From positions 256,001 through 320,000 of the forward strand of contig VMGC01000001.1 in NCBI GenBank assembly GCA_007376385.1: a DNA stretch of 64,000 bases, in the 5' to 3' direction. Below are positions 6,349 through 27,513 of this stretch, piece after piece. Each line of letters begins with the position of its first letter. Positions within the stretch are counted from its first letter, which is position 1. The DNA comes from Parcubacteria group bacterium Gr01-1014_8 (GTDB lineage: Bacteria > Patescibacteriota > Minisyncoccia > Phycocordibacterales > UBA2100). The notes under the pieces were generated by a model. It did not search any database. It was not told where the DNA came from and worked only from the letters and a program-made list of their open reading frames with translations. A program made the position numbers and the translations under genes.

Positions 6349-6379
6349 GAACGCATGATGCCTCACATCGTGTCTTCTT

Positions 6380-7210
6380 TCAACGTGACTTGTGCACCAG
6401 AGCATTCAGACGTGCCTGGGCGTCGGTTATCTTCCGAAAAGCATCATGGCTTTCGTGGTGGGAGTGGGTTTGCCAGATAGGTATCAACTCATTTAGTGTG
6501 GCAAGCATACCGGCAAGTTCAGCTTTACTTTCTTCGTGTTCAAGCCAGGAGATATCCGCATCGTTCATGATGTTCAACATACGGTTTATACGCGCAGTTG
6601 TGCGCTGGACGGCATCGAGAAGGAGTACTTCTCTGCCAGGGTCGATAACATACAGATCACTTATGACGTCGTAGAAATTCGGTATTTCTTTGAGAAGGCT
6701 TGAGATCTGTTGGTACGCGATGGTGAGCCTTTCCCACTCAGCGTCCGTGAGCGCATTGTTGTTCTCAACAAGTTGAATGACGTGATCAAAATCCTTGCGT
6801 GCAACATAAAAATCTTCTCGAATACTCCGGAACGTTAGTTCAAATGATAGCTGATGGACTTCTTTTATTGACTTGTCTTGCCGGTAAGATACGAGTTTTG
6901 CGATGAAGAGAGCGAAAAGAAACAGCTCAGTGACGCTTTGCAGAGCAGCAAAAAATCGTGAATATCCTAGAGGGACGATATCGCCGTACCCCGTGTTTGT
7001 TGCTGTTATGACACTGTAGTAAAGGCTATTGAGCATCCGGCCGAGGAAGGGAAGTTCACTTAGCCCGCTCGGTCCATTTCCTGGTACGTAACTCAAGGCG
7101 ATGTAGATAGCAGCATATATAAGTACGCTTGAGACCCAGAACAGGAAAATCACACTGTACGACAACTCGTTCACTCTATCGATGAATGTCAGTCTGTTTT
7201 TTGTTTCCAT
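6380..7210 (-). CDS. Potassium channel protein (two-TM pore domain plus cytoplasmic domain)
   Basis: K+ selectivity filter TNTGYGDIVP between two TM helices; 276 aa. Confidence 0.8.
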   Translation of the reverse strand: METKNRLTFIDRVNELSYSVIFLFWVSSVLIYAAIYIALSYVPGNGPSGLSELPFLGRMLNSLYYSVITATNTGYGDIVPLGYSRFFAALQSVTELFLFALFIAKLVSYRQDKSIKEVHQLSFELTFRSIREDFYVARKDFDHVIQLVENNNALTDAEWERLTIAYQQISSLLKEIPNFYDVISDLYVIDPGREVLLLDAVQRTTARINRMLNIMNDADISWLEHEESKAELAGMLATLNELIPIWQTHSHHESHDAFRKITDAQARLNALVHKSR

Positions 7211-7240
7211 ACCGCTGGGCTATCGGGGGGCATTAAAGCA

Positions 7241-8563
7241 CTAAAATGTAGCATTTTCTAGAAATTCTATTCGTTCTTTCATTGTTGGATGAGTGCCGAA
7301 CCACCACTGTAAGAATCTTGGCGGGTCGGGATCAACAAAACTTTGGTACGTCATTTTCCTGAATGATGTGATAGCGGGCTTAGTCGCATGCGTTAATTCG
7401 AAACCGAACACATCTGCTTTATGCTCGATGTCGCGGCTGATAGCGGAATCGATAGGGGCAGCAAGCAGCGACATGGTCGAGAGAATAACGCCAAGGAACG
7501 GGTAGAGCACGATGTCGTTGACACGCGTGGAGCCAATGCGTTTACCCCATTTTTTCAGCACGTACCAAAGAATGAGTGCGAGGAGTCCTAACGATATGAA
7601 TGTCTCGATAGCATACTGCACGATACCTCTCCACATGTCGTGTTTTACATAGTGGCCAAGTTCATGTCCAAGGATTGCCAGGATTTCGTCGTCTGTGTAA
7701 TACGTGAGCAATGTGTCATCGAGTACGACGCGTTTCGTGCTCCACAATCCCGTCATGTATGCGTTGCTCTCGAGTGTGCGAGTACTTGCGTCCTCGACAA
7801 AGACGCGGTCGACAGATATTCCGGCAGAATCGGCGAGCGTAATTATCTTTTCCTTAAGAACGCTATCTTCAAGCGGGACATTTCTGCTGAAGAGCGGGTC
7901 TATCACGACGGGAGCGATGTACCCGGTGAAAATGCTAAACAAGGTTAGAAATGCCGCACCGAGTGCCCACCAGGCTCTTGGATATTTATCCATTATCCAG
8001 TAGAGAGGTATGAATGTCGCGATCGCGAATACGAATTCGAGAAAGAGGTTCAACACGAGATCCTCGACTGCGAGAAGGGGCGTTATGTTTGAAGTTCCTC
8101 GCAGAAGCTCAATGTAATAATCGGATACATACGTTGGGAGCGCGATGAACGTTGATAGCAGAACCATTCCTAATAGATAATAGGAACGTTGTGCATGCAC
8201 GTTTCTATAGAGGCGTTTAGCAAGATTCGCGAGTGCGCTGCTTACGCCCCCAAAAATGATCAACCACGCGATGAAAAACGAGAACAAGATACCGACGACA
8301 AGACTCACCTCATAGAATGCACTCTCGAATCGCGCGACTTTTGTCCACTCGCCGTTTTCAAGGTCAATAGATTCAACAGGAGGAAGTACGTTGTCTCGAA
8401 GGTCTTTTTCATGAGAGAGAAAGGCCTCCTTTAAGGGGCCAGTCGCAAAATAATGGTACGCAGCGAATGATGCCGACTCTACTATCGCGCTGATGACAAG
8501 AAGCAGCACTATTTTTTTAAGAATACTCATGAGAATAGCGGCTCCCTCTTTTTTGATATACAT
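7241..8563 (-). CDS. M48 family zinc metallopeptidase (Ste24/HtpX-like)
   Basis: HELGHYVKHD zinc-binding HExxH motif embedded in a multi-TM protein; 440 aa; an alternative start at MSILKK is possible. Confidence 0.85.
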   Translation of the reverse strand: MYIKKEGAAILMSILKKIVLLLVISAIVESASFAAYHYFATGPLKEAFLSHEKDLRDNVLPPVESIDLENGEWTKVARFESAFYEVSLVVGILFSFFIAWLIIFGGVSSALANLAKRLYRNVHAQRSYYLLGMVLLSTFIALPTYVSDYYIELLRGTSNITPLLAVEDLVLNLFLEFVFAIATFIPLYWIMDKYPRAWWALGAAFLTLFSIFTGYIAPVVIDPLFSRNVPLEDSVLKEKIITLADSAGISVDRVFVEDASTRTLESNAYMTGLWSTKRVVLDDTLLTYYTDDEILAILGHELGHYVKHDMWRGIVQYAIETFISLGLLALILWYVLKKWGKRIGSTRVNDIVLYPFLGVILSTMSLLAAPIDSAISRDIEHKADVFGFELTHATKPAITSFRKMTYQSFVDPDPPRFLQWWFGTHPTMKERIEFLENATF

Positions 8564-8571
8564 TCTAACCT

Positions 8572-9318
8572 ATGATAGGGCTCTTTGATTCCGGTTCGGG
8601 CGGGCTCACAGTACTGGATGCACTTCGAAAAAAGGCGCCGAATGCAGATATTGTGTATTTCGGCGACATCAAGAATGCGCCCTACGGGACGCGGTCCAAG
8701 GAAGAGCTTGCGTCGCTAACAACTGCGGGCATTCGGATGCTGCAGAATTTTGGCACAGACGAACTCATCAGTGCCTGCAACAGTGCTGCTCTTTCCGTAC
8801 TCTTGGGCGCGGCGGGGCACGCGCGCATAATAGATATGACGCGCCCGACAGCGCGAGCAATGAGACAATATGCGGGAAAACGCGTACTGCTTCTTGCGAC
8901 CCCGGCAACAATCATTTCTCGTCTGTACTCAGACGCTCTTGAGACAATAGTGCTTTTGGATCCGCTCCCCATCGCAGAGCTCGCTGCCGCTATCGAATTC
9001 GGCGCTTCGAGATCCACGATACGAGACATTGTGAGAAGTTCTTTTCGAGAACGGAAAGGGAGGCAGTACGACCTGGTTCTTCTCGGGTGCACGCACTATC
9101 CACTCGCGCGCGACATTATTGAGAGAGAAGCGGAGAAGATGTTTGGAAAGGTAGAATACATAGATCCAGCAGAAGCAGTTGCTGAGGAGGCTGCGCAACG
9201 ATTTCACACGGAAGGTCGTGGAAAACTTGCGTTCAAAATCTCAAAGGACTCTGATCATTTTAGGAAGCGTGTCGCCGAACTTTGGCCGGACGCCAAATAC
9301 ACTATTCAAATAACATGA
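8572..9318 (+). CDS. murI: Glutamate racemase
   Basis: MIGLFDSGSGGLTVLDALRKKAPNADIVYFGDIKNAPYGTRS… and LLGCTHYP motifs. Confidence 0.9.
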   Translation: MIGLFDSGSGGLTVLDALRKKAPNADIVYFGDIKNAPYGTRSKEELASLTTAGIRMLQNFGTDELISACNSAALSVLLGAAGHARIIDMTRPTARAMRQYAGKRVLLLATPATIISRLYSDALETIVLLDPLPIAELAAAIEFGASRSTIRDIVRSSFRERKGRQYDLVLLGCTHYPLARDIIEREAEKMFGKVEYIDPAEAVAEEAAQRFHTEGRGKLAFKISKDSDHFRKRVAELWPDAKYTIQIT

Positions 9319-9424
9319 TTGCCCTGTCGCAGCCAGGGTGCCCGTGATTTAATGTGAGTACTTATGATTCGGACCGTTTCTTTTCGAGCGGACATTTTGA
9401 TTTTTCGGGACGCCCTTCTCTCAT

Positions 9425-10780
9425 ATGAGTGAACTACGGCAAGGACCGCCAGGAGGGCCACCGGAGGGTCCTGATGAAATCAAGGATCCAAGAGGAATTA
9501 TTCGAATGTGTCTTGGAATACTTGAGCCACTACGGTCAAAGCTTGAACTTTCAGAAGTGGAAACGAAAGCACTTGAACTCTTTTCTGCGGTGCAAGGATT
9601 AGTGCTTGCTGAATTTCTTAGCTCAACGAGAAATCCTGCTCCGTATCGGGTTATATATGATCTCATAGCACGGAATGAAGAGGGGCTCTCATTGCCTGCA
9701 AGACAGGTTGCAAACCGAATAAAATCTGCTCTAGAGCGGTTTGAGGCGAGAATGAGTCAAGCTCCCGGAACACAGAAAGCAGAGGGTTCTCCATGGCAGC
9801 CCAGAATATTGAATGACGAAGACATTAGAGTTTTTAAGGGGGATGGACTGCAAGTCTGGCGATCACTACGAACGGCAATGAGCAAAAGTCAAAAGAGCCT
9901 CGCAGATATCTCGAAAGAAACGCGAATACCATTCCCAAAAATATATAAAGCGTTTACAAGCACTTCCTTTAGGGATCCCAAAACTGGAACTCCTTTAGAC
10001 CACCCCCTCAGCGTGGGCGAGCTAACACTTGTTGGTATGGTTTGCGGTGTTCCCATTCGAACAGATGCACTTCCACCTGTTCGGGAAAGAGTGCGACGGT
10101 TGCTTTTACCTGAGAGAGCAGAAATAACTCCTTACGAAGATATTGCAGACGTTCCTCTAAAAGAAATTCCTCCGGAAAGGCTAAGCGTTGTCTCATTAGC
10201 CCAAGTAAAAAGAGATCGAGAAGCAATCTCGCAATTCATGAGTGAGGTGACCAGACTGCGATCCGCAGTTAAAAATATTCAGAAAGGGTGGGAGAAAGAA
10301 GCGGGGAGCGAAGAACATATCAGAGACTTTTTATTCAATGTTGGATCACTGACTAAGAATATGCAGGGTTTAGCGCGAGGTCAACTCGACGGAAAAAATA
10401 TGCGAACACTGGTTGAACTATACATACAACACGTAGTATTTGCGGTCATGAATATCGTAGGTCTCTATCATGTGGAACTGCGTACAAAGCTTAACCCCAT
10501 CGCGCTACGACTTTCGAAGATAACGACACCTGCAATTATTCGTGCACTTCTCGGGTCGGATTCCGATAGATCATTGACACACGAAGACTTGATTAAGGTA
10601 TTGGGTCACGTCGTCGCGCTCATGAATGTCTTGGAGCGAGAGCTTACAGCAGCTCTCGCTAGCGGGATTAAAACTAATTACGGACATGTTCGAGTTGCAG
10701 CCAGGCACCTCGTTGAAATGACGCAGGCGCTTCGTAACATTTTGCCAGAGGGAGAAATTTCTCAGCAGAAAGGCGACTGA
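9425..10780 (+). CDS. Hypothetical soluble protein, 451 aa, no recognisable domain
   Basis: Long ORF with protein-like composition and no TM segments; located between murI and murD. Confidence 0.5.
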   Translation: MSELRQGPPGGPPEGPDEIKDPRGIIRMCLGILEPLRSKLELSEVETKALELFSAVQGLVLAEFLSSTRNPAPYRVIYDLIARNEEGLSLPARQVANRIKSALERFEARMSQAPGTQKAEGSPWQPRILNDEDIRVFKGDGLQVWRSLRTAMSKSQKSLADISKETRIPFPKIYKAFTSTSFRDPKTGTPLDHPLSVGELTLVGMVCGVPIRTDALPPVRERVRRLLLPERAEITPYEDIADVPLKEIPPERLSVVSLAQVKRDREAISQFMSEVTRLRSAVKNIQKGWEKEAGSEEHIRDFLFNVGSLTKNMQGLARGQLDGKNMRTLVELYIQHVVFAVMNIVGLYHVELRTKLNPIALRLSKITTPAIIRALLGSDSDRSLTHEDLIKVLGHVVALMNVLERELTAALASGIKTNYGHVRVAARHLVEMTQALRNILPEGEISQQKGD

Positions 10781-10791
10781 CACGCGCAAAT

Positions 10792-12138
10792 ATGACCAAC
10801 AAGTACCAGTCCTTTTTTGCTGGAAAACGCATAACCATGCTGGGTCTTGGTCTTTTGGGGCGCGGGGTGGGGGACGCTGAATTTATCACGCCTCTGTGCA
10901 AAGAATTGCTCATCACCGATCGAAAATCTGAAGACGAATTGCGAGGATCGGTGGCTCGTCTGAAAAAGCATCCGAATATAACTTTTAGATTGGGAGAGCA
11001 ACGAGAAGAAGATTTTACAAACTGCGACATGGTTATCAAAGCGGCTGGTGTACCACTGGACTCACCGTATATTGCAGCGGCAAAAAAAGCAGGTGTTCCA
11101 GTGTATATGTCGACTGCTCTCTTTGCGAAATTTGCGAAGGAAATGAGCGTTACCATTGTCGGCATCACCGGTACGCGGGGAAAATCTACGGTCGTGCATC
11201 TCATCTATCACGCGCTGCACGAGGCAGGGAAACGCGCTCATCTTGGCGGAAACATTCGAGGCGTGTCAACGCTCGCGCTGCTTCCGAAGATGCAAAAAGG
11301 CGATATAGCTATTCTTGAACTTGATTCGTGGCAGCTGCAGGGATTCGGTGACCTGCAGATAAGTCCTCATATTGCCGTGTTCACGAATTTGATGCCTGAT
11401 CATTTGAATTACTATCCGGACATGGAGACGTATTTCAATGATAAGGCGAATATTTTTAAATATCAGAAAAAAGGTGATGTCCTCATCGCCGGAGACCAGG
11501 TCGAACAAAAGATCTTGCGCGCTCAGCCGACAGTTGATCCTCTGTCGCCGTTGCTTTCCAAATCGATAAAGCTGAAAATTCTCGGAGAACACAACCGAGA
11601 AAATGCTGCACTCGCTGCAGCTGCGCTCGATACGCTTGGCCTCTCTGAAGAGGTCATTCATGAAAGTCTAGGATCTTTTCGGGGTATTGAAGGACGTCTG
11701 CAGTATCTGGGCGAAACACAGGGTGTAAAAATATACAATGACAACAATGCGACAACTCCCGAAGCGACAATTGCAGCCCTTCGTGCTCTGGGCGATGGGA
11801 AAAATATCGTGCTCATCATCGGGGGCGATGACAAAAACTTGGATATGTCCAAGCTTGTGGAAGAAATCCCGAAGTGGTGCAAGGGGGTGGTTATGTTCAA
11901 AGAGAGGGGGACCGATCGAATACGCGAACAGGTTCTTGCGATGAAGGGTCAAAAAATCGACGTCTACGAGGAAAAGGGATTGGAGGCTACGGTTAAGCGT
12001 GCTTTTTCAGTCGCGAAGGAGGGGGAGACTCTATTGTTCAGCCCCGCTTTTTCATCGTTCGGAAGATACTTCAAGAACGAGTTCGACAGGGGTGACCAGT
12101 TCGTTCAGTTGGTGGATGCACACGTGAAAGCCGGATAA
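10792..12138 (+). CDS. murD: UDP-N-acetylmuramoylalanine--D-glutamate ligase
   Basis: ITMLGLGLLGRG… N-terminal Rossmann domain, GITGTRGKSTV P-loop, Mur ligase middle and C-terminal domains; 448 aa. Confidence 0.9.
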   Translation: MTNKYQSFFAGKRITMLGLGLLGRGVGDAEFITPLCKELLITDRKSEDELRGSVARLKKHPNITFRLGEQREEDFTNCDMVIKAAGVPLDSPYIAAAKKAGVPVYMSTALFAKFAKEMSVTIVGITGTRGKSTVVHLIYHALHEAGKRAHLGGNIRGVSTLALLPKMQKGDIAILELDSWQLQGFGDLQISPHIAVFTNLMPDHLNYYPDMETYFNDKANIFKYQKKGDVLIAGDQVEQKILRAQPTVDPLSPLLSKSIKLKILGEHNRENAALAAAALDTLGLSEEVIHESLGSFRGIEGRLQYLGETQGVKIYNDNNATTPEATIAALRALGDGKNIVLIIGGDDKNLDMSKLVEEIPKWCKGVVMFKERGTDRIREQVLAMKGQKIDVYEEKGLEATVKRAFSVAKEGETLLFSPAFSSFGRYFKNEFDRGDQFVQLVDAHVKAG

Positions 12139-14166: not shown

Positions 14167-15465
14167 ATGACGACATCAAACAATATTTACATGGTGGGCA
14201 TGGGGGGAATCGGCATGTCAGCCCTTGCGCAACTGTTGGTCCACCAAGGCAAGAACGTAAGCGGGTCCGACAGGGAAGAGTCGCCAACGACCGCGATGCT
14301 GGGAGATAGAGGAATACAGGTTACGGTGGGCCACGACCAATGCAACATTCCTGCCGATACTGGACTTCTTATTTATAGCGACGCGGTGAATGCGGATAAC
14401 ACGGAGCGCGTGCGAGCGAGGGAGATGGGCATCAAGCAGATATCGTACTTTGAGATGTTGGGGAAAATCAGCGAGCCCGGGACAACCATTGCTGTTGCAG
14501 GAACTCACGGAAAAACAACGACTACCGGCATGCTTGCATCAATTCTTAGAGCGGCAGGCAAGGAGCCAACGGCTATAGTCGGCTCTATTGTCCGTGATTT
14601 TCCCGGCCGGACAGGGGGTTCGAATTTTCTTGCCGGACGGTCGGATCTCTATGTCATCGAAGCGTGCGAATACCGGGACCACCTTCTGGAACTGAAACCA
14701 GAAATACTCGTCATTACTAACATAGAGCTTGATCACACAGATTTCTTTCCATCGCTTTCCGCTATGCAAAATACATTTCACTCTGCAGTGGAACGTGTCC
14801 CAAAGCATGGAACAATCGTGACGGATCCCGAGAATTCGAATATTGCGCCGATACTTTCCCATATCAGCGCGCGAGTTGTCGATTACACGAAAAAGGCAGT
14901 CGGTGAATTGAAACTTATCGGTGAATTTAATCGTGAGAATGCGCGCGCCGCTCTTGCTGGTGCTCTTGCTGCCGAACCATCTCTTTCGCAAGAAGCTGCC
15001 ATACACACACTGTCTGAATTTAAAGGTTCCTGGCGCAGATTTGAATACAAAGGCGAGACACCGCATGGGGCGCTCGTCTACGATGATTATGCGCATCACC
15101 CGACGGCAGTCCGGAAGACCATTGAAGCAGCGCGTGAGAAATACCCTAACAAGCGGATCGTCGTTGCATTTCATCCGCATTTATATTCACGAACGAAATC
15201 GTTCCTTGCAGAGTTTGCTGATGCGCTTGCAACAGCCGACGATGCGATAATCGCTCCCATTTATGCGGCGCGTGAGGCGCATGATGGAAGCATTTCAAGC
15301 GATGTTCTTGCAGAGGAAATTCGAATGCGAAAAGGCAATGCACGAGCCCTGCAATCATTCGAGGCGATCCGACAGGCGCTTTCGCTTGAGCCGGGAAATA
15401 CGGTGATTATCACTATGGGTGCCGGAGATATTTATAAAGTTTCGGAACAAATTATTGTTCAATAA
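14167..15465 (+). CDS. murC: UDP-N-acetylmuramate--L-alanine ligase
   Basis: MVGMGGIGMSALAQLL… N-terminus, AVAGTHGKTTTTGMLASIL P-loop; 432 aa. Confidence 0.9.
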   Translation: MTTSNNIYMVGMGGIGMSALAQLLVHQGKNVSGSDREESPTTAMLGDRGIQVTVGHDQCNIPADTGLLIYSDAVNADNTERVRAREMGIKQISYFEMLGKISEPGTTIAVAGTHGKTTTTGMLASILRAAGKEPTAIVGSIVRDFPGRTGGSNFLAGRSDLYVIEACEYRDHLLELKPEILVITNIELDHTDFFPSLSAMQNTFHSAVERVPKHGTIVTDPENSNIAPILSHISARVVDYTKKAVGELKLIGEFNRENARAALAGALAAEPSLSQEAAIHTLSEFKGSWRRFEYKGETPHGALVYDDYAHHPTAVRKTIEAAREKYPNKRIVVAFHPHLYSRTKSFLAEFADALATADDAIIAPIYAAREAHDGSISSDVLAEEIRMRKGNARALQSFEAIRQALSLEPGNTVIITMGAGDIYKVSEQIIVQ

Positions 15466-15895
15466 GTTTTCCATATTTAATTTCGAGATCGTGGAGAGCA
15501 TCTTCAGCTGAAGTAATCTGATCCAGAAACCACGGTTCGTCCTTCCAGATTTGCCCGTCCATCCTTTTGTCGACCAAAAATCCTTTTAGTCCATCACGCC
15601 ACATCGTGAGCCGTTGTTTTGTTGTTCTGTATGCTGCTTCTCTAATGACGAGATGTTTTTTCGTTTGTCCTACAGCAGCTAAAAAGAGCGCGTATCCCCG
15701 AAGAATTTTCGCGCCCTGATTTAGAACTTGAGATTTCAATACTTGAGGGGGTGTTCTTTCCAAAGGGCCGCCCGCATTCTCAACCACCCATTCTGCTATC
15801 CTGTCCCAGTATTGAACGACCGTACGCACTCTTTCTTCAAAAGTTCCATTCGGCAAATCAAAATCTTTAAATGAACGCGACTCGGGACGGTTCAT
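15452..15895 (-). CDS. Hypothetical protein
   Basis: 147 aa ORF convergent with murC, no recognised domain. Confidence 0.4.
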   Translation of the reverse strand: MNRPESRSFKDFDLPNGTFEERVRTVVQYWDRIAEWVVENAGGPLERTPPQVLKSQVLNQGAKILRGYALFLAAVGQTKKHLVIREAAYRTTKQRLTMWRDGLKGFLVDKRMDGQIWKDEPWFLDQITSAEDALHDLEIKYGKLIEQ

Positions 15896-16666: not shown

Positions 16667-16918
16667 ATGACACTAGATGCTCTCATAATGCTTCTTGGTA
16701 CATTCGTTGCGATCCTGCCTTTTTTGGGGTTTCCGAACAGTTGGGACACTATCATGTTGTTAGTTGCCGGTATTCTGCTTGTAGTTCTTGGTATCGTCGT
16801 GCGCAGAAGACTTGCTCGAAAGAATGGCGGCTCCCTAGCCGGGCAGGCCGGTCCGCATGCGCACGCCTCAGCAGAAAAATCATCTCTGGATCCTTCTCGG
16901 CATGAACCCATGCACTAA
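16667..16918 (+). CDS. Small membrane protein (2 TM), hypothetical
   Basis: 83 aa; MLLGTFVAILPFLGF and LLVAGILLVVLGIVV hydrophobic helices. Confidence 0.4.
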   Translation: MTLDALIMLLGTFVAILPFLGFPNSWDTIMLLVAGILLVVLGIVVRRRLARKNGGSLAGQAGPHAHASAEKSSLDPSRHEPMH

Positions 16919-17009: not shown

Positions 17010-18314
17010 ATGGGAAATAATGCCAAAATTAGTGACCGGGCAGGCAGCCGTAGGCCAAAGCCCCGCCGATACGGGCTTATGCTCGCATGTGCGGCAGCTT
17101 TTCTTGCTGTTGGCCTGTATTTTAGCGGATGGAGTACCAGCATCGCCATAGCTCTATCGGGCGCATACGATACTCTGGTTCCACCGACGGTTTCATTCGA
17201 TAGAGCTGATCCGGATCCCGAAAGTGAGCCGCTTCTTCCCCCAAAACCTGTAGTCGAGCACGCTCCGACTCCTAAAGAAGTAAAGGCAGTGTACATGACA
17301 CAGTGCTACGGAGGCACGCCGTCGCTCCGCTCCGGCCTTATCAAGCTCGTTAATAACACCGAGCTGAATTCTATTGTTCTCGACCTCAAGGATTACAGCG
17401 GTACCGTATCGTTCCCATCGAAAGTTGCGCTAGAAGGAGGTGGTTGCACAATATCTGATTTTCGAGATTTAATTAAGCAAATGCACGACAACAACATTTA
17501 TGTCATCGGCAGGCTCACCGTATTCCAAGATCCCGTATATACAAAAGCACACCCTGAAGAAGCGGTACAAAGCGTTTCAAGGAACGGGCCATGGAAAGAT
17601 AGAAAAGGCCTCTCGTTCGTGGATGTCGGCTCTAGTGCATTTCACTCGTACATCATTGCACTTGCCCGCGAAGGGCATGACCTTGGCGTCGATGAGATAA
17701 ATTTTGATTACGTTCGATATCCATCGGACGGGGACATGAAGGATGCGGAGTATGCGCATTCAGAGGGGAGTCATCCGGAAATGCTCGAGAAATTCTTCAA
17801 GAAACTTAGCGAAGCAGTTCGTGCTGACCAGCCTGACCACATGCCGGTACTTTCCGCTGACCTTTTCGGGATGACGACGACCAATACGGATGATCTGAAT
17901 ATTGGGCAGGTCTTAGAACGTACTCTTCCGTATTTCGACTACATCGCGCCGATGGTGTATCCATCTCACTATCCAACGGGTTTTCATGGGTACAAGAATG
18001 TGAATGCGAACTCATATGGCATCGTACACTTTTCAATGAGCGAATCAGTGCGACGTACAGTCGCATCGACAACGCCAGTTGAAGCGCTTGCGTACGAACG
18101 TATGGGAACCTCGACACCTGCCGTCTATAAAAAACCAGTGTATGACAAGCAAAAAATGCGCCCTTGGCTCCAAGATTTTGACTACCCCGTTGCGTATACT
18201 CCAGCGATGGTGCAGGAACAGATAAAAGCGACCCACGATTCAGGACTCAACTCATGGATGTTCTGGGATCCTGCGAATAGATACGATAGCTTGCGCCAAG
18301 TGCTGTCGCAGTAG
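17010..18314 (+). CDS. Membrane-anchored putative glycoside hydrolase-like protein (DUF4015/GHL10-like TIM barrel)
   Basis: N-terminal TM (LMLACAAAFLAVGLYF) then GHDLGVDEINFDYVRYPSDGD motif reminiscent of the GHL10/DUF4015 family; 434 aa. Confidence 0.5.
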   Translation: MGNNAKISDRAGSRRPKPRRYGLMLACAAAFLAVGLYFSGWSTSIAIALSGAYDTLVPPTVSFDRADPDPESEPLLPPKPVVEHAPTPKEVKAVYMTQCYGGTPSLRSGLIKLVNNTELNSIVLDLKDYSGTVSFPSKVALEGGGCTISDFRDLIKQMHDNNIYVIGRLTVFQDPVYTKAHPEEAVQSVSRNGPWKDRKGLSFVDVGSSAFHSYIIALAREGHDLGVDEINFDYVRYPSDGDMKDAEYAHSEGSHPEMLEKFFKKLSEAVRADQPDHMPVLSADLFGMTTTNTDDLNIGQVLERTLPYFDYIAPMVYPSHYPTGFHGYKNVNANSYGIVHFSMSESVRRTVASTTPVEALAYERMGTSTPAVYKKPVYDKQKMRPWLQDFDYPVAYTPAMVQEQIKATHDSGLNSWMFWDPANRYDSLRQVLSQ

Positions 18315-18316
18315 GT

Positions 18317-19162
18317 ATGGGATTATTTGACTGGGCCAGAGGAAAATCCAACGAAAAATTGCGAGCGGGCCGGCGGGCTCGCGAGCAAATTATGTCTGCT
18401 GCACATGCAAAAGCGATTGCTGCAGCACAAAGCGAGACCATCCATGATGACTGGGCGTATATCGATTCTCCATTAGAGCTGCCTCCGGCACATATTGGGT
18501 CGTTCGATGAGACGTTCAAGAGAGTTCTTCCGGTAGAGACCTTGCCGCACGAGAGGAATTTGCGACGATATATCGAGCGCACATTTGAGCATAAGAAAGG
18601 CGGCGTTATAGGCATCGAATTTGGCGGCCCTGCGTCAAGGCTTTTTGCCGGCTTCACTCCCGGTTTTTTTAAAAAGTCGCTTGGCGTATCAATCAGGGAT
18701 TATAGAAAAGAAGAAGTGCGGCAATCTGACGCCAAACGGCACCATGCTGTCATAACTGGGAATATGTTGTGGGAAGAGACGGAAGAACGTGTGGACGAAT
18801 GGTTAGGGGGGGAAAAAGTGGATGTAGGATTTCAACGGCTTTTGGACGGGTTCGAGTTCATTCCTATAGAGCCGTATACGCTCGGTGCATGGATACAGCG
18901 GCGATACCGGCAGTTAAGCGACGTCGGCCTGCTCGTTCTGCAGGTTCCGCTTACTATGCAACCGTTCCTTAAGCCATGGTCCGAAGCAATACAAGCGAAG
19001 TGTGGTGATAGGATACAATTTCAATTCGTCGAAGGAACGAACGATCGATCAACGTTCGAAACAGGAGCGCTGCGAATTCAAAAAATGAAAGGAGCGCCCG
19101 AAGAATTGCCACCCTTAGATGCACGTACGATTCGAAATATAACTGAAATTTCTCGGAAATGA
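18317..19162 (+). CDS. Hypothetical protein (possible Rossmann/methyltransferase-like motif VIGIEFGGPAS)
   Basis: 281 aa ORF tightly packed between neighbours, no confident family. Confidence 0.5.
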   Translation: MGLFDWARGKSNEKLRAGRRAREQIMSAAHAKAIAAAQSETIHDDWAYIDSPLELPPAHIGSFDETFKRVLPVETLPHERNLRRYIERTFEHKKGGVIGIEFGGPASRLFAGFTPGFFKKSLGVSIRDYRKEEVRQSDAKRHHAVITGNMLWEETEERVDEWLGGEKVDVGFQRLLDGFEFIPIEPYTLGAWIQRRYRQLSDVGLLVLQVPLTMQPFLKPWSEAIQAKCGDRIQFQFVEGTNDRSTFETGALRIQKMKGAPEELPPLDARTIRNITEISRK

Positions 19163-19191
19163 GCAATGTGAAGCGGTGATATACTTCGGAG

Positions 19192-20820
19192 ATGCACGTC
19201 GATCAGAATAATCCGGACCGTCGTGTCACCTATTTTGCGTCCACCCATACGCGCGGCCAGCGCGAGCTTTTTGGCATTCGTGGGGAGGATCGAGGCAAGC
19301 ATATATACCTCATTGGAAAGACCGGTATGGGCAAGTCGACCCTGATGGAGAATATGGCAATTCAGGACATACAGAATGGCGAGGGCATCTGTTTTATCGA
19401 CCCGCACGGAGCAACAGCAGAAAAACTTCTCGACTTTGTACCCTACGAGCGCATCAAGGATGTCGTGTATTTTGCGCCATTTGATACCGATTACCCGTTC
19501 GGCTTTAACGTGATGGAGGACGTAGGGTATGACAAACGCCATCTTGTCGTTTCAGGACTCATCGGTGCGTTCAAGCGTATCTGGGTAGATATGTGGAGTG
19601 CTCGGATGGAATACATCCTCCAGAATACTCTCCTTGCACTTCTTGAATACCCCGACGCAACGCTCCTCGACGTGAATCGGATGCTCTCGAACAAAGAATT
19701 TCGGAAAGCGGTGATCGAGAAGATCTCGGACCCTATCGTCAAAACATTCTGGAAAGAAGAATTTGCGACCTACACCGACCGTTATACGCAAGAGGCGACG
19801 CCCGCGATACAAAACAAGGTCGGTCAATTCACTGCGAACCCGTTGGTGCGCAATATTGTGGGACAGCCAAAATCATCATTTGACCTGCGAAAGATGATGG
19901 ATGAGAAAAAGATATTCATTATCAACCTCTCGAAAGGAAGAATGGGCGAGTCGAACGCGTCGCTTCTGGGCAGCATGCTTACGGTAAAGATCTATCTCGC
20001 TGCCATGTCGCGCGCAGACGAACCCGCCTCGCGTCTCGCACAATTGCCGCGCGTCTATTTCTATGTTGATGAGTTCCAATCGATGATGAATGAGGCTTTT
20101 GCCGACATCCTTTCCGAGTCGCGAAAATATAAACTTGCGCTCACTCTCGCGAACCAATACATCGAACAGATGGAAGAAAATGTGCGTAACGCGGTTTTTG
20201 GCAACGTGGGAACGTTGATAGCGTTCCGTGTCGGCCCGTTTGACGCGGAAGTGTTAAAGACGATTTTCGAGCCGACATTCACGCCAGAGGATCTTGTGGG
20301 ATTAGGCGTTGGCCACATCTATTTGACGCTCATGATAGATGGAGTCGGTTCACAGCCTTTTTCTGCGGAGACGATACCTCCCATAGACTTGCCTTCTGTC
20401 TCGTATCGGCAAGATGTCGTGCATTATTCGCGGGCAACATACGGGCGTCCTCGGGCGGAAATGGAGACGCTTGTATTGAAGCGGCAGGAGGATTTTGCGC
20501 CGCTTTCCAAACAGGACAGGAAGAAGGCGCAAGCGGCAAAAAGGCCGGATGAGGCGGAGATGCCACATAGAGAGGAGGGTTCGAGTGCGGATCGCGCCGC
20601 CTTGCGTGCGGCATTAAGTGCGGCCAAGACAGAGGCGCCGAACATGAATGGCAAGACGCCAATTGAGATCCTTCGCGCACGCAAGGCGGCGAAGGAAGCG
20701 CGCTCATCGCACGGCGCTGATGCACAATCGCCTCCAAAGGCGGCGCAGCAGGAACAGCGAGAAGGAGAAATATCACCGGAAGTGCTGCAAAGGATCCTTC
20801 GCGGCAACGATCCAGTATGA
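19192..20820 (+). CDS. Soluble TraD/VirD4/HerA-like P-loop ATPase (type IV secretion DNA-binding-domain family)
   Basis: Walker A LIGKTGMGKST, FIDPHGA, Walker B VYFYVDEFQ, sensor TLANQ; no TM helices; Lys/Ala-rich disordered C-terminus; 542 aa. Confidence 0.75.
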   Translation: MHVDQNNPDRRVTYFASTHTRGQRELFGIRGEDRGKHIYLIGKTGMGKSTLMENMAIQDIQNGEGICFIDPHGATAEKLLDFVPYERIKDVVYFAPFDTDYPFGFNVMEDVGYDKRHLVVSGLIGAFKRIWVDMWSARMEYILQNTLLALLEYPDATLLDVNRMLSNKEFRKAVIEKISDPIVKTFWKEEFATYTDRYTQEATPAIQNKVGQFTANPLVRNIVGQPKSSFDLRKMMDEKKIFIINLSKGRMGESNASLLGSMLTVKIYLAAMSRADEPASRLAQLPRVYFYVDEFQSMMNEAFADILSESRKYKLALTLANQYIEQMEENVRNAVFGNVGTLIAFRVGPFDAEVLKTIFEPTFTPEDLVGLGVGHIYLTLMIDGVGSQPFSAETIPPIDLPSVSYRQDVVHYSRATYGRPRAEMETLVLKRQEDFAPLSKQDRKKAQAAKRPDEAEMPHREEGSSADRAALRAALSAAKTEAPNMNGKTPIEILRARKAAKEARSSHGADAQSPPKAAQQEQREGEISPEVLQRILRGNDPV

Positions 20821-21764
20821 TTCCGCAGAGAACTCTGTTGTTATCAATAGCAGCGTTGTTTGTTCCGGGTGCTGTGTCCGCGCAAGTCGTCATTACCGAA
20901 TTGATGTACGACCTTTCTGAGGGCTCTGATACAGGGCGCGAATGGATAGAAGTATGGAATAGCGGAACAGAGCCCATAGAGCTTACAAACTGGAAGTTGT
21001 TAGAAGCGAATACGAACCATGGCATAAACGCAGTAGGAACTGAAACGCTGGCCCCCGGCGAGTATGCAGTTATCGCTGACAATCCGGCAAAATTTAAAAA
21101 CGATTGGCCTTCTTTTTCGGGAATATTATTTGATTCTTCTTTTTCTCTGAATAATGCCGGTGAACAGTTGATTCTGCGTTGCTGTGGAAAAGAGCTAAGC
21201 GATAAGGATTCGGTGACGTATTCGAGCGAGTGGGGAGGTGCGGGAGACGGCGCGTCGCTCGCGAAAAGCGGTTCATCGTTCATTGCGGCGCAGCCTTCGC
21301 CGGGCTCGGGCTCAGTTGTTGCATTTGCTGTTCCTGAACCTGAATTGCGGTCAGAACCGCCACCTCAACAAAAAGCAGTACAGCAAGAAATTGCAAAGAA
21401 ATCGGAACCGGACAATAAAGAGAGTCCCGCACAAGATCCGAGCGCGGATGTTGCTTCGCAAGTTACAACAGCTCCATCTGTGCAAAAACAAGATGAGGCT
21501 CCAAAAAAGATAGCAAAGAAAACCACCCCTTCTGCTCAAAAAGACCCCGTGCAGAATTCTGAAGAGGAGGTCATTGTTGAGGCCACCGATACAAAGGGCG
21601 TAATAAGCGATAGCAATCAGGCCGCTGCGGTAGCGAGCACGGAAACGAATAACGTGATGTGGTGGGGAGGAGCAGTCACGCTTACAGCCCTCGGGGCAGG
21701 GGCAGTAGTCTTTCTACAGCGAAGCAGAAAAAAGGAATGGGATATTGTTGAGGAAAAAGAGTAG
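20817..21764 (+). CDS. Secreted lamin-tail-domain (LTD) protein with C-terminal transmembrane anchor
   Basis: Signal peptide MIPQRTLLLSIAALFVPGAVSA, LTD signature VVITELMYDLSEGSDTGREWIEVWNSGTEPIELTNWKL, long acidic/Pro-rich low-complexity region, C-terminal TM WWGGAVTLTALGAGAVVFL then RSRKKE; ATGA overlap with the upstream ATPase gene. Confidence 0.75.
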   Translation: MIPQRTLLLSIAALFVPGAVSAQVVITELMYDLSEGSDTGREWIEVWNSGTEPIELTNWKLLEANTNHGINAVGTETLAPGEYAVIADNPAKFKNDWPSFSGILFDSSFSLNNAGEQLILRCCGKELSDKDSVTYSSEWGGAGDGASLAKSGSSFIAAQPSPGSGSVVAFAVPEPELRSEPPPQQKAVQQEIAKKSEPDNKESPAQDPSADVASQVTTAPSVQKQDEAPKKIAKKTTPSAQKDPVQNSEEEVIVEATDTKGVISDSNQAAAVASTETNNVMWWGGAVTLTALGAGAVVFLQRSRKKEWDIVEEKE

Positions 21765-25542: not shown

Positions 25543-27513
25543 ATGCGCATCTTAAGTATTTCCAGTGATTGGAACGTCTTTAGTGAAGACAGTGCCGTCG
25601 CGAGACGCCAGCGTCTGCAGGCTTCAACCGTAGAGCGGTTCGATGTGTTCATGCCGCATGGGCCCGACGAGACCATTCATATCGCAGGAAACGGGACCAT
25701 GCGCGGGTTTGGTCCCGGCAAATTGCGAGGCATGTTTCGCATGTTATGGTCCGCATTCAGGATGCAAAGACCGGATATCGTTTCTTCACAAGACCCATTC
25801 TTTCTAGGACTTCTTGCCTGGAAGATCGCAAAAGTGCGGGGAGCAAAACTGCATATACAGATACACACCGATCTTTTTGACCCGCATTTTGCAGCGCATT
25901 CTTTCACCAATCGAATTCGATTGCTGCTCGCGCGTTTCGTTCTCTCGCAAGCAGATTGCGTTCGCGTCGTGTCGGAGCGCATTAAGCGCTCATTGGATAA
26001 ATTGCATCTTCGTGTCCCGGTTTCTGTTCTTCCGGTTTTTATTGATGCGGAGGTCATTGACGCGGCGCAACCTTTGCAGAAACGCAGCGTATATCCCGAT
26101 TTCGAGAAAATAATTCTAGTCGTCAGCAGACTCGAGCCGGAAAAGAATGTTACTGCCGCCCTTCGCGCTCTGCCGGACATATTGAAAGCGCAGCCGGGCA
26201 CCGGGCTCGTCATCGTCGGCGATGGCTCTTTGCGCGAGCAGCTCGAACGTCTTGCGAAAGAGCTCGGCATTGAGAAACGCGTTGCTTTTGCAGGCTCTAC
26301 AAAGCCATATCCATACTACAAAGCTTCAGATCTATTACTTTCGACCTCTGATTACGAAGGATATGGGATGGTGGTGGTAGAAGCGCTCTATGCAGGATGT
26401 CCTGTCATCTCGTTCGATACTGGCGTCGCTCGCGAAGCAGGTGCCATAATCGTGACTCCAGAGGTTCTTGCGAGCACTGCGGCTGCCACGTTATCAGAAG
26501 GCCGCCGTGGGAAACTCGCTTTTACTTTGCCGAGCGAACAGGAATATCGTGACCTATGGCACTCACAGATCGCGCTTACGCTGGCACTGAAGAGTTCTGC
26601 CTCCGCGCCAAAAGCGGCATCGAGAAAGGCGTTGAAAATAGGTTTTATCGGGCAAGGCTTCATCGGCAAGAATTACGCGGATGACCTCGAGCGACGCGGT
26701 ATCTCGGTCACACGGTATGCTCTCGAAGAACCGTATCGGCAAAATAAAGACAAGATAAAAGATCGCAACATCGTTTTCATTGCCGTTCCAACACCGACCA
26801 CACCGAAAGGGTTCGACTATTCGATTGTGCGAGAGGCTGTCGGTCTTGTCGGGAAGGGAAGTGTTGCCGTCATCAAATCCACGCTTGCCCCGGGCACGAC
26901 AGAAAAGATACAGAAAGAATTCCCGGGCGTCATCGTGATGCACTCTCCCGAATTTCTGCGGGAAGCAACGGCGGCGTTTGATGCTGCGAGACCGGATAGG
27001 AATGTCATCGGGCTTGCCATCGATTCGCCCGAGAACAGAGAGCGTGCAAAGGACGTTCTTTCCATTCTGCCGTCTGCTCCGTTCGAGCTCATTTCAACGT
27101 CGAGAGAAGCGGAACTTATTAAGTACGCGGGGAATGCGTGGCTGTATATGAAAGTCGTATACGCGAATATGCTGTACGACCTTTCAGAGCGTTTGCATAT
27201 CAATTATCAAAGCGTGCGAGAGGGTCTTGCCGCGGACCCGCGCGTTGGAAGGTCGCACCTAGATCCGATCCACGCCAGCGGGCATCCTGGAGCTAATCCG
27301 GGTCGTGGGGCGGGAGGTCACTGTTTCATCAAAGATTTTGCCGCACTTCGCATGGAGTATGAGCAAGCTTTGCCGGATGATACTGCCGGAATCGCAGCCT
27401 TCCGTAAACTCGAGGAGAAAAATGTGCAGCTGCTTCTTGAGAGCGACAAAGACCTCGAACTCCTGCGCGGTGTATACGGAGATGAACTAGAGAATTTCCG
27501 AAGGAAGAAATAA
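25543..27513 (+). CDS. Fusion protein: N-terminal GT4 glycosyltransferase plus C-terminal NDP-sugar dehydrogenase (UDP-glucose/GDP-mannose dehydrogenase family)-like domain
   Basis: Residues ~1-340 are GT4-like (EGYGMVVVEALYAGCPVISF). From KIGFIGQGFIGKNYA the C-terminal part is UDPGDH-like: IVFIAVPTPT, VIKSTLAPGTT, MHSPEFLREATAAFD. Confidence 0.7.
   Translation: MRILSISSDWNVFSEDSAVARRQRLQASTVERFDVFMPHGPDETIHIAGNGTMRGFGPGKLRGMFRMLWSAFRMQRPDIVSSQDPFFLGLLAWKIAKVRGAKLHIQIHTDLFDPHFAAHSFTNRIRLLLARFVLSQADCVRVVSERIKRSLDKLHLRVPVSVLPVFIDAEVIDAAQPLQKRSVYPDFEKIILVVSRLEPEKNVTAALRALPDILKAQPGTGLVIVGDGSLREQLERLAKELGIEKRVAFAGSTKPYPYYKASDLLLSTSDYEGYGMVVVEALYAGCPVISFDTGVAREAGAIIVTPEVLASTAAATLSEGRRGKLAFTLPSEQEYRDLWHSQIALTLALKSSASAPKAASRKALKIGFIGQGFIGKNYADDLERRGISVTRYALEEPYRQNKDKIKDRNIVFIAVPTPTTPKGFDYSIVREAVGLVGKGSVAVIKSTLAPGTTEKIQKEFPGVIVMHSPEFLREATAAFDAARPDRNVIGLAIDSPENRERAKDVLSILPSAPFELISTSREAELIKYAGNAWLYMKVVYANMLYDLSERLHINYQSVREGLAADPRVGRSHLDPIHASGHPGANPGRGAGGHCFIKDFAALRMEYEQALPDDTAGIAAFRKLEEKNVQLLLESDKDLELLRGVYGDELENFRRKK

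Follow-up and report, generated by a model that had tools for sequence, protein, structure and literature searches.

The window analyzed here is a 64-kb stretch of a MAG of Parcubacteria/Paceibacteria, representing a tiny uncultured bacterium of groundwater. Positions 17010 to 21764 (+ strand) carry genes for a membrane-anchored DUF4015 protein (17010-18314, 434 aa), a protein with a predicted methyltransferase fold (18317-19162, 281 aa), an ATPase (19192-20820, 542 aa), and a lamin-tail-domain (LTD) surface protein (20817-21764, 315 aa). The ORF coordinates bear out the first-pass annotation's description of four same-strand genes with spacings of 2, 29, and −4 nt. The overlap between the ATPase and LTD genes is a genuine ATGA (sequence context CCAGTATGATTC), which had been taken to imply co-translation; as a sequence feature it suggests translational coupling of the two genes but does not show co-translation. 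As the three gene junctions contain no terminator-like sites, and their promoter-like matches equal the number expected from shuffled sequence, co-transcription is plausible but unproven.

The ATPase is a soluble P-loop ATPase of the VirD4/VirB4 (TrwB-like) branch of the FtsK-HerA superfamily, with a conserved core at approximately residues 8 to 430. Its earlier assignment to the type IV secretion (T4SS) ATPase family, made from its motifs and apparent lack of transmembrane (TM) helices, was upheld by Pfam matches to TrwB_AAD_bind (7e-11), T4SS-DNA_transf (2e-7), DUF87 (1.5e-5), and TraG-D_C (1.6e-5) and by TM prediction, which found no TM segment. Against NCBIfam models of type IV coupling protein (T4CP) type it scored 48 bits, far below the cutoff of 366, and structure comparison identified VirB4 and TrwB, rather than FtsK, as the closest folds. 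Across 79 homologs, long forms included, G42, K43, G45, G47, and K48 of the Walker A motif (GKTGMGKST, residues 42 to 50; 19315-19341, +) are invariant, as are all residues (Y291, V292, D293, E294, F295, and Q296) of the Walker B motif (YVDEFQ, residues 291 to 296; 20062-20079, +); the FIDPHGA motif occupies residues 68 to 74. Going by its homologs TrwB, VirB4, and HerA, the protein would form a hexameric ring. The core is followed by a low-complexity, mostly disordered linker (residues 431 to 525; 20482-20766, +; pLDDT 38 to 81) whose length differs among homologs, and the tail as a whole (residues 431 to 542) is rich in A/R/E/P/K with a net charge of +3. Near its end lies a conserved peptide, EISPEVLQRIL (20767-20799, +; consensus E[VI]PEDVL[KR]xxL), within which the model places a helix at residues 529 to 536. 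This peptide is present in nearly all short forms from both the close and the divergent sets of related loci; its presence is independent of the downstream gene and does not covary with the partner. A separate long-form paralog carries a TM segment and DUF8128 and resides in its own secretion-like cluster.

The gene directly downstream is predicted to encode a surface protein of the type-I membrane class: behind the signal peptide come an LTD at the distal end, a stalk, a TM helix, and finally a tail on the cytoplasmic side. Its orthologs likewise lie 3' of the ATPase. The signal peptide (MIPQRTLLLSIAALFVPGAVSA, hydropathy 2.1) is predicted to be cleaved before QV, leaving the LTD (residues 20 to 135; 20874-21221, +; PF00932, E = 2.3e-14, 54 bits versus a cutoff of 34) as the membrane-distal module. 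The stalk (residues 151 to 278), rich in A/S/P/Q/V/E/K, is present as first described, but with a net charge of −7 it is only mildly acidic. The C-terminal TM helix, WWGGAVTLTALGAGAVVFLQ (residues 282 to 301; 21660-21719, +), is an uncharged, Gly/Ala-rich segment of 20 aa with a hydropathy of 1.5; a TM helix is kept in 59 homologs, and 90% or more of the 59 orthologs share W282. Signal peptide, LTD, and anchor thus all stand as originally read. The tail, RSRKKEWDIVEEKE (21720-21761, +), carries the motif EWDI(I/V)EE as part of a terminal KKEWDI(I/V)EE. W308 and I310 are invariant, and at least 90% of the 59 orthologs share E307 and E312. Several LTD-TM orthologs stop immediately past the TM helix and have no tail.

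The first two of the four genes are less constant. The DUF4015 protein (+; PF13200, E = 6e-79; TM helix at residues 22 to 40) is indeed membrane anchored and glycosyl hydrolase-like, but its initial label of "GHL10-like" is approximate, since in Pfam GHL10 returned no score and GHL6 and GH18 matched only weakly. Its gene occurs in 44 of 80 close loci and lies immediately 5' of the ATPase in 29/72 close and 20/59 divergent loci, making it a frequent yet dispensable syntenic neighbor rather than a core part. The 281-aa protein (+) is a near-orphan with no match in Pfam, NCBIfam, PADLOC, or PDB sequences and just two remote relatives among 5.8e9 proteins. Its AF2 model (pLDDT 65) suggests a class I SAM-methyltransferase fold, the top 50 Foldseek matches all being methyltransferases, and the gene appears to be an unrelated, lineage-specific insertion in a variable hotspot. 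It was found in only 2 of 80 related loci; given this count and that for DUF4015, the four-gene operon proposed earlier is not a conserved unit, and the conserved core consists of two genes, the ATPase and the surface protein. Upstream, a conserved and syntenic 83-aa protein (tm83; 16667-16918, +) with two predicted TM helices (residues 5 to 23 and 27 to 45) occurs in 69 of 80 loci. It has no Pfam family and only marginal similarity (12 bits) to the N termini of long-form ATPases; a role as a membrane anchor is possible but unsupported.

A survey of homologous neighborhoods agreed with the earlier expectation that the ATPase is linked to LTD-type surface proteins, as the partner lies directly 3' of it in 57/64 close and 20/55 divergent loci, with a junction of at most 33 nt or an overlap in 39 of 58 cases. 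The two genes are probably often translationally coupled. The partner is absent from beside the ATPase in the other 35/55 divergent loci, and the ATPase tree requires at least seven gains or losses of the partner while the ATPase is retained. The adjacency survives in several separate, deep branches of this tree, although other neighbors change. However, the whole block (murC-rsmI-tm83-DUF4015-ATPase-LTD-epimerase-GT4), with peptidoglycan and glycan biosynthesis genes as the flanks of the ATPase, is syntenic, and adjacency therefore provides no independent functional evidence; with murC, rsmI, epimerase, and GT4 conserved alongside, the linkage cannot be cleanly separated from general synteny. 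The most persistent neighbors in divergent loci are DUF4015 upstream and GT4 downstream of the ATPase, and the variable gap of the locus often carries an L,D-transpeptidase/DD-carboxypeptidase fusion. The ATPase is the slowest-evolving gene of the block, with a median identity of 64.6% among divergent loci compared with 51.1% for RsmI and 44.1% for MurC, and it stays highly conserved where the LTD partner is absent (e.g., locus L167). This ATPase subfamily is chromosomal rather than viral, vertically inherited, unusually slow-evolving, and widespread in Paceibacteria-type CPR bacteria.

Two features of the surface protein go beyond gene order. One is the tail: the EWDI(I/V)EE motif was found solely on the ORF directly 3' of the ATPase, in 58 loci plus the window and nowhere else, and a generalized form of it gave 67 ATPase-adjacent matches versus 3 elsewhere among ~13,500 ORF segments, these 3 being two antisense ORFs and one short ORF of 66 aa. 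Judged from this pattern, a physical partnership of the ATPase with the tail is plausible. The other is a domain swap. A ComEA-type HHH_3 domain (E down to 4e-22) takes the place of the distal LTD, at the same position, in 7 + 3 orthologous proteins, which keep the PKD domain, TM helix, and tail; the minimal form, at locus L131, consists of signal peptide, HHH_3, TM helix, and tail. DNA binding by bacterial LTDs is putative, and ExeM degrades extracellular DNA even without its LTD (PMC6085458), but secreted DNases show the same alternation between LTD and duplicate HhH (PMC4486849). Because the distal LTD is exchanged for a ComEA-type HHH_3, the idea of surface DNA binding gains independent support, and the swap is consistent with such a role for the LTD protein. 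The first-pass view of the locus as a DNA uptake, export, or processing device is thus partly supported, by the evidence on DNA binding and by the linkage to LTD-type proteins in other genomes, the latter being qualified by the synteny and the repeated gain and loss of the partner.

As a conserved conjugation-type motor adjoins a surface protein with a DNA-binding-like tip, the pair may constitute a DNA-handling device. We tentatively favor the reading that the functional unit is this two-gene pair, a surface DNA receptor and an ATPase for DNA translocation, rather than a four-gene operon. The surface protein would act as a ComEA-like receptor capturing extracellular double-stranded DNA; its cytoplasmic tail would recruit the TM-less ATPase ring to the membrane, much as proposed for TraI and TraJ of pIP501, a precedent for anchoring a TM-less T4CP through a separate membrane protein (PMC13037476); and the ATPase would power DNA translocation, with import the most likely direction, through a channel encoded elsewhere, such as ComEC or a T4SS-like pore. 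The DUF4015 protein, resembling a cell wall or glycan hydrolase, may or may not assist. ComEA is annotated in just 31% of CPR genomes, and a different mode of DNA binding has been suggested on that ground (PMC6744442). Deleting comEC in S. epibionticum abolished competence and left viability unaffected, and the T4CP homolog proved nonessential (PMC12857230, PMC12102498); DNA uptake would thus not by itself account for the strong conservation of the ATPase.

That conservation, exceeding that of MurC and RsmI and persisting where the LTD gene is missing, would also be expected of a cytoplasmic DNA translocase or repair motor with a housekeeping function, syntenic with, but not coupled to, an independent surface protein. 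Such a motor could serve chromosome segregation, resolution, or end processing in the manner of FtsK or HerA, with its gene lying in a conserved block of cell envelope genes, and the syntenic peptidoglycan and glycan flanks and the neighbor-independent C-terminal peptide fit it as well. We nevertheless consider this explanation rather unlikely, as the tail motif is confined to the ATPase-adjacent gene, overlaps or very short gaps between the two are frequent, their adjacency is held in deep branches despite changing neighbors, the nearest folds are those of VirB4 and TrwB, not that of FtsK, and no NurA-like or other repair partner lies near the ATPase. Slightly less probable still is that the ATPase is an orphan T4CP delivering substrates to a remote Patescibacterial T4SS, typically encoded near dnaA, with the LTD protein an adhesin or otherwise unrelated. 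No VirB, ComEC, pilus, or channel families and no T4SS or relaxase gene were found among the 34 window ORFs profile scanned, in line with the earlier statement that this is not a classical T4SS; this does not exclude a T4SS elsewhere, because Patescibacterial T4CP genes usually lie far from virB4, only 148 of the 5,713 VirD4-type T4CPs from 2,918 Patescibacteria genomes being near virB4 (PMC12102498). In its fold and Pfam families the ATPase agrees with T4CPs, and the TM-less TraJ of pIP501 functions with a monoderm T4SS (PMC13037476). On the other hand, the ATPase has no canonical N-terminal TM domain, and TrwB, PcfC, and MobB mutants without this domain are nonfunctional in conjugation; conjugative T4CPs are heterogeneous in sequence, length, and architecture (PMC7431656), whereas this ATPase is highly conserved. 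Further, most Patescibacterial T4SS clusters have no relaxases (PMC12102498), and the long-form paralog is a better T4SS candidate.

An explanation without DNA, in which the ATPase reads the acidic tail as a client signal, appears quite improbable. The ATPase would then help in assembling, positioning, or turning over the surface protein, or would energize the export of some wall or glycan product of DUF4015 and GT4. The genes for these two persist most in divergent loci, and the variable gap often holds the transpeptidase/carboxypeptidase fusion. T4CP complexes can recognize acidic C-terminal peptides, such as the E-block signals of Dot/Icm DotM. The folds of LTD and PKD are Ig-like and are found in association with carbohydrate-active proteins as well, according to a passage of PMC6085458 that cites Mans 2004. 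Against this, the exchange of LTD for a ComEA-type HhH points to nucleic acid rather than glycan, and the surface protein, having a normal Sec signal peptide, needs no special exporter. To our knowledge, there is no precedent for glycan export by T4CP-type ATPases.

Among known systems, ComFA would be a purely functional analog of the ATPase in its proposed role, being a cytoplasmic ATPase that works behind a surface receptor and channel to draw DNA inward (bioRxiv 10.1101/2021.10.29.466550; PMC12663950); ComFA proteins are DEAD-box helicases, a fold family unrelated to FtsK-HerA. The archaeal Ced system (CedA, CedB, and CedD) shows that T4SS-family ATPases can drive DNA import rather than export (bioRxiv 10.1101/2024.09.27.615246), but CedB and CedD are VirB4-like proteins that have TM and N-terminal domains and operate together with a pilus and a VirB6-like channel, CedA. 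No such component is encoded here, and the similarity of the ATPase to NCBIfam CedD is negligible (23 bits versus a cutoff of 600, P-loop region only). ExeM and halotolerant DNaseI-family nucleases are also secreted or anchored proteins with an accessory LTD, sometimes with PKD, or duplicate HhH (PMC6085458, PMC4486849). In contrast to these, a domain scan detected no nuclease domain in the window protein or its orthologs, and the match to NCBIfam ExeM is negligible (13.9 bits versus a cutoff of 1300). ComEA is likewise a membrane-anchored extracellular protein, and 10 orthologous loci carry its type of HHH_3 tip, but the window protein has an LTD instead of HhH and a reversed topology, its signal peptide being cleavable and its anchor C-terminal. 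It further differs in its PKD and stalk modules, in its conserved tail on the cytoplasmic side, and in being linked to a T4CP-like ATPase instead of comEB/comEC. Compared with the T4CPs TrwB of R388, VirD4, TraD, Cagbeta, and DotL, the ATPase has no N-terminal TM domain and instead has a long disordered linker and a conserved terminal peptide; its further differences are a chromosomal location, vertical inheritance, and far stronger conservation than that of conjugative T4CPs. TraJ of pIP501 resembles it as a soluble VirD4-like ATPase of a monoderm whose putative tether is the separately encoded membrane protein TraI (PMC13037476), and Patescibacterial T4SSs are related to the MPF-FATA class, as in pIP501 (PMC12102498). 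No Tra or VirB genes adjoin the window ATPase, and its candidate anchor, a surface protein, combines a large ectodomain of DNA-binding type with a conserved tail in the cytoplasm; any likeness to TraI would be one of role.

The four forward-strand genes of the locus lie where the first-pass annotation had placed them, at 17010 to 18314, 18317 to 19162 (the 281-aa protein), 19192 to 20820 (the ATPase), and 20817 to 21764 (the lamin-tail-domain [LTD] surface protein), with spacings of 2, 29, and −4 nt, and the ATGA overlap of the ATPase and LTD genes is present in the sequence. Profile searches bore out the domain assignments made there, except that the label “GHL10-like” for the first protein stood only in part: the N-terminal transmembrane (TM) helix is present and DUF4015 is matched over its full length (PF13200; E = 6e-79, 265.8 bits, Pfam profile positions 1 to 313 of 313), but GHL10 itself gave no score. 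None of the three gene junctions contains a terminator-like site, promoter-like matches there are at the level expected from shuffled sequence, and co-transcription of the four genes is plausible. As a conserved unit, the four-gene operon could not be upheld. Among 80 reference-genome loci (close loci), all with an ATPase of at least 64% identity and covered over 8 to 10 kb on either side of it, the 281-aa gene has homologs in 2 and the DUF4015 gene in 44, next to 80 for the ATPase, 69 for an 83-aa protein with two TM helices (2-TM protein), 66 for rsmI, 63 for the LTD gene, 59 each for the epimerase gene and murC, and 55 for GT4. Synteny extends to unrelated genes, murC and rsmI among them, so gene adjacency within this close clade is weak functional evidence.

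A narrower pairing, that of the ATPase with the membrane surface protein encoded directly downstream of it (the partner), is marked by a distinctive cytoplasmic tail. In the window, both the signal peptide and the C-terminal TM anchor proposed for the LTD protein were confirmed, the anchor being uncharged, Gly/Ala rich, and 20 residues long; the LTD matches PF00932 at residues 20 to 135 (54.1 bits versus a gathering score of 34.3), and the stalk is of low complexity as described but only mildly acidic (net charge of −7). Behind the anchor follow 14 cytoplasmic residues, FLQRSRKKEWDIVEEKE. The gene directly downstream of the ATPase nearly always encodes a type I membrane protein ending in WW(L)GA-TM-RR.GKKEWDI(I/V)EE, and an alignment of 59 partner proteins shows no variation at W308 and I310 and at least 90% conservation of W282, E307, and E312. 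The strict tail motif was found in 58 loci and the window, only on the ATPase-adjacent open reading frame (ORF), in a search of approximately 1.1 Mb plus the 64-kb window. The two genes overlap or are separated by at most 33 nt in 39 of 58 cases, with the same ATGA overlap in five, as judged from heuristic start calls. Some partner orthologs have no tail.

The ectodomains contain an LTD in 47, PKD in 39, and a ComEA-type HHH_3 domain in 7 of the 59 proteins from close loci and in 19, 18, and 3, respectively, of the 21 from divergent (metagenomic) loci. Individual architectures show HHH_3 taking the place of the membrane-distal LTD and of nothing else: the HHH_3 orthologs keep the PKD, the stalk, the TM helix, and the tail, along with a weak second LTD-like domain. 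The window protein has an LTD and no HHH_3, which in orthologs from 10 loci occupies the same position. A minimal partner, in locus L131, consists of a signal peptide, HHH_3, the TM helix, and the tail in 201 aa.

The ATPase-LTD linkage first proposed from this one locus recurs in other genomes. A relaxed tail motif, defined as a TM helix followed by a C-terminal [DEQ..][FWY]xI[IV..][DE], adjoins the ATPase in 57 of 64 close loci and 10 of 50 divergent loci, and it occurred elsewhere only three times among approximately 13,500 ORF segments (two antisense and one a short 66-aa ORF); a hidden Markov model (HMM) of the strict EWDIIEE tail had essentially no matches in divergent loci. Of 80 metagenomic loci, 55 had enough downstream sequence to be classified, and the gene behind the ATPase encodes a signal peptide-LTD/HhH-TM protein in 20 of them, is GT4 directly in 25, and is another gene in 10, including three for proteins of approximately 840 aa and one that is pilin-like. 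The three large proteins (833 to 856 aa; L094, L104, and L110) are encoded approximately 350 to 410 nt downstream of the ATPase, and their N terminus, M..LKKLF.SENDKLLEKYQ, is SecA-like by eye; the type IV pilin-like gene (L097, positions 2543 to 3187) follows after a 302-nt gap, with the prepilin N-methylation motif KGFSLIELLV and a Pfam N_methyl match of 4e-6. On a neighbor-joining tree of ATPase cores, which carries no support values, the presence of a membrane partner changed at least seven times; one large clade keeps the partner almost throughout, and in the other it is scattered. This distribution is consistent with an adjacency that is ancestral, persisted in several deep lineages, and was deleted time and again, which argues for selection on the linkage; it also shows that the ATPase can do without a partner next to it.

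The ATPase passed the Pfam gathering thresholds of TrwB_AAD_bind, T4SS-DNA_transf, DUF87, and TraG-D_C. The Walker motifs GKTGMGKST and YVDEFQ and the motif FIDPHGA, all quoted in the first-pass annotation, are present, the catalytic residues of the Walker motifs are invariant in 79 homologs, and Pfam and PDB matches agree on an FtsK-HerA-type nucleotide-binding domain. An all-alpha domain is inserted into it: TrwB_AAD_bind covers residues 36 to 346, and the AlphaFold2 monomer model (pLDDT of 86, pTM of 0.78) has a helical block at residues 113 to 237, between the Walker motifs. In Foldseek searches, the best TM-scores were obtained with TrwBdeltaN70 (0.61 to 0.67; approximately 420 columns aligned with TrwB), followed by Cagbeta, DotL, and HerA. 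Therefore, the ATPase is placed in the VirD4/VirB4 branch of the FtsK-HerA superfamily and is more than a KaiC/RecA-like protein, the contrary grouping that the first-pass annotation had raised. NCBIfam cutoffs were not reached (the best were TIGR03743, with 48 bits versus 366, and NF045973, with 37 versus 250). The family is very large and comprises two forms, short and long, with at least 8,000 database matches, the top 120 of which all have at least 64% identity, and with 5,666 clusters at 50% identity (E ≤ 1e-30). The window ATPase was correctly described as lacking TM helices: a hydropathy scan found none in it, and no TM segment was found in any of 73 representatives of the short soluble form, whose members share the N-terminal motif (V/I)TYFA.T.FR...FGIK.

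Short-form ATPases end in a variable, low-complexity, disordered linker followed by a conserved peptide (positions 20482 to 20799 in the window, residues 431 to 536) with the consensus E(V/I)PEDVL(K/R)xxL, modeled as a helix. The peptide is kept whether or not an LTD/HhH partner follows and does not covary with a tail-bearing neighbor, so it probably binds something else.

The ATPase is chromosomal in origin. Viral contigs carried no close relative, and a search of 2.9 million gave just 10 that were distant, the best of them bordering an integrated element and lying on its chromosomal side; we therefore rejected a viral or mobile origin. Membership in a defense system was likewise rejected, the sole PADLOC hit being a generic ATPase-level match to mad8 (58 bits) with no other component. 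In locus L167, a serine recombinase and an N6/N4 DNA methylase (positions 7988 to 11296) lie directly downstream of a short-form ATPase of 58% identity and represent the edge of an integrated element; the 3′ side of the gene may therefore be an integration site in some lineages.

Long-form relatives have an N-terminal TM helix and a DUF8128 domain of approximately 350 aa before the ATPase core (1,028 to 1,140 aa in L081, L083, and L085, each spanning positions 1 to 10500). They are found in a separate conserved cluster beside secDF, with no LTD, and this different neighborhood is therefore uninformative on the ATPase-LTD pair. The cluster comprises, in order, a giant protein (>1,100 aa), DUF5663, an unknown protein, a second DUF8128 ATPase (approximately 840 aa), a small protein, a sigma70_r4/HARE-HTH protein, and the long ATPase. 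The layout of TM helix, N-terminal domain, and ATPase resembles that of VirB4 and CedD, and a secretion-like apparatus may be encoded by this cluster in Berkelbacteria-type CPR. Searches by tblastn and phmmer for a DUF8128 domain encoded separately near short forms were both negative. The 2-TM protein (positions 16667 to 16918, forward strand; consensus MTLD.LIML.GAFVA.LPFLGFPNSWD...GIVVRRR) belongs to no known family and is conserved between rsmI and either the DUF4015 gene or the ATPase gene in the 69 loci that have it. The idea that it is a split-off coupling-protein TM domain found no support; its match to long-form N termini (12 bits) is at the level of composition, and other genes often lie between it and the ATPase.

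The 281-aa gene occupies a variable hotspot upstream of the ATPase, behind the 2-TM protein or DUF4015 gene. In other loci (L010, L015, L022, L029, L036, L042, L043, L046, L049, L050, L053, and L058), the hotspot holds a fusion of L,D-transpeptidase and DD-carboxypeptidase (9 loci), a 370-aa TM protein (5 loci), ParE toxins (4 loci), or an ECF sigma factor. The 281-aa protein has no sequence match in Pfam, NCBIfam, or PDB, and a search of 5.8 billion proteins gave no more than two remote relatives; its model is of moderate quality (pLDDT of 65), and as every one of the 50 best Foldseek matches in PDB is a methyltransferase (TM-score of up to 0.66), we predict with moderate confidence a class I S-adenosylmethionine (SAM)-methyltransferase Rossmann-like fold with seven strands. 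Its IEFGGPxS block resembles SAM motif I by eye only. Elsewhere in the window, a 939-aa protein (positions 2365 to 5184, reverse strand) whose only recognizable domain is DUF4430, in two copies, is probably a large surface protein and has no EWDIIEE-type tail; a 147-aa ORF between murC and rsmI (positions 15452 to 15895, reverse strand), which overlaps murC at its stop over 14 nt and matches no Pfam family, is of uncertain status as a gene. Rfam and tRNA searches found no RNA genes in the window.

The reading best supported by these observations is a two-gene module that combines a ComEA-like surface DNA receptor with a TM-less ATPase ring of T4SS (type IV secretion system) type, and we infer a mechanism in which the surface protein would serve as the receptor and its cytoplasmic tail would recruit the ring. 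We lean slightly toward the ATPase and surface protein being physical partners and, to a similar degree, toward DNA being the ligand of the partner ectodomain, although DNA binding by bacterial LTDs is unproven (PMC6085458). DNA import as the net function is a tentative suggestion, and equally tentative is the broader proposal that Paceibacteria-type CPR possess a lineage-specific, two-part DNA capture and translocation module with a swappable LTD/HhH-tip receptor, the tail of which docks an exapted ATPase as an import motor. General synteny, repeated partner loss, and the lack of a nearby channel gene count against the module. The first two points speak for the view that the ATPase is a housekeeping translocase whose neighbors are merely syntenic, and the ATPase is also the slowest-evolving gene of the neighborhood, with a median identity of 68.8% in close loci versus 64.6% for MurC and 62.8% for RsmI and, for its core in divergent loci, 64.6% versus 44.1% and 51.1%. 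The confinement of the tail motif to ATPase-adjacent ORFs and the apparent selection on the linkage lie on the other side, and we consider the housekeeping view rather doubtful.

That the ATPase could instead be an orphan type IV coupling protein (T4CP) of a distant T4SS is suggested by its fold and Pfam families and by the orphan T4CPs already reported from Patescibacteria, with 5,713 homologs, most of them far from virB4 (PMC12102498). The exaptation suggested for these homologs in the same paper speaks for the two-gene module. The family of the ATPase is already annotated as [quoted passage not shown] However, the N-terminal TM domain that anchors the ring of a canonical T4CP is absent from the window ATPase, and we regard this role as unlikely. 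The ATPase also departs from canonical T4CPs in its genetic surroundings, as a T4SS or relaxase association was found neither among the 34 window ORFs scanned nor in the locus neighborhoods, and from VirB4 in lacking the N-terminal domain of approximately 400 aa that precedes the ATPase domain there. The same 34 ORFs include no VirB component, as the first-pass annotation had noted, and no ComEC or pilus protein. A role in envelope assembly would suit the surroundings: upstream are genes for PdxS/PdxT, a channel, an M48 peptidase, a Glu-racemase-like protein, MurD, a phosphate transporter, MurC, and an RsmI-type methylase, and positions 21909 to 64000 form a surface-glycan or capsule biosynthesis cluster of approximately 40 kb, with an epimerase, several GT4 glycosyltransferases, DegT aminotransferases, a dehydratase, an ABC exporter, Capsule_synth proteins, and NeuB. 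We think envelope assembly quite improbable. Two unusual fusions were seen in the glycan cluster, GT4 with UDP-glucose dehydrogenase (positions 25543 to 27513, 656 aa) and a flavin amine-oxidase/GLF-like domain with NeuB and SAF (positions 45626 to 48028, 800 aa).

The two-gene module, if real, would join two questions about CPR in one concrete hypothesis. Only 31% of CPR genomes have an annotated ComEA, though these bacteria are thought to scavenge DNA (PMC6744442), and thousands of VirD4-like Patescibacterial genes lie away from any T4SS without a known role (PMC12102498); the module would explain both DNA binding by ComEA-poor genomes and the role of the abundant “orphan” coupling proteins. 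It counts against the module that S. epibionticum stays viable without comEC and that a T4CP homolog is nonessential there (PMC12857230, PMC12102498). Our literature search found no description of a short soluble subfamily with such extreme conservation and a terminal peptide, of a recurrent partner with a unique cytoplasmic tail, or of the LTD/HhH tip exchange. Confirmation of docking and DNA binding would raise the interest of the finding from moderate or good to high; a pairing that is only syntenic would still leave a useful result, the definition of a highly conserved subfamily of short-form ATPases and the demonstration that the four genes of the “operon” do not form a unit.

Several known systems resemble parts of the proposed module. 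Like ComEA, the window surface protein is extracytoplasmic and membrane tethered, by its signal peptide and C-terminal TM helix, but its topology is the reverse of that in Bacillus subtilis, where ComEA is anchored by its N terminus. C-terminal sorting signals (LPXTG, PEP-CTERM, and GlyGly-CTERM) place their motif before a TM helix and a basic end and occur on many proteins per genome, whereas the partner tail has its conserved motif after the TM helix and basic cluster and, in the loci examined, occurs once per locus and only beside the ATPase; the NCBIfam LAETG sorting-signal score of the LTD protein is 14.3 versus 30. LTDs and duplicate HhH motifs also alternate as accessory modules on secreted DNases, where they have been proposed to be functionally analogous (PMC4486849), but the window partner has no nuclease domain. 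For docking, a precedent may be found in pIP501, in which the TM-less T4CP TraJ is believed to have TraI as its anchor (PMC13037476). Finally, the module would be a further example of the exaptation of a conjugation-type motor, here for a chromosomal role that may be directed toward import, with a parallel in the archaeal Ced system, in which T4SS-family ATPases import DNA (bioRxiv 10.1101/2024.09.27.615246).
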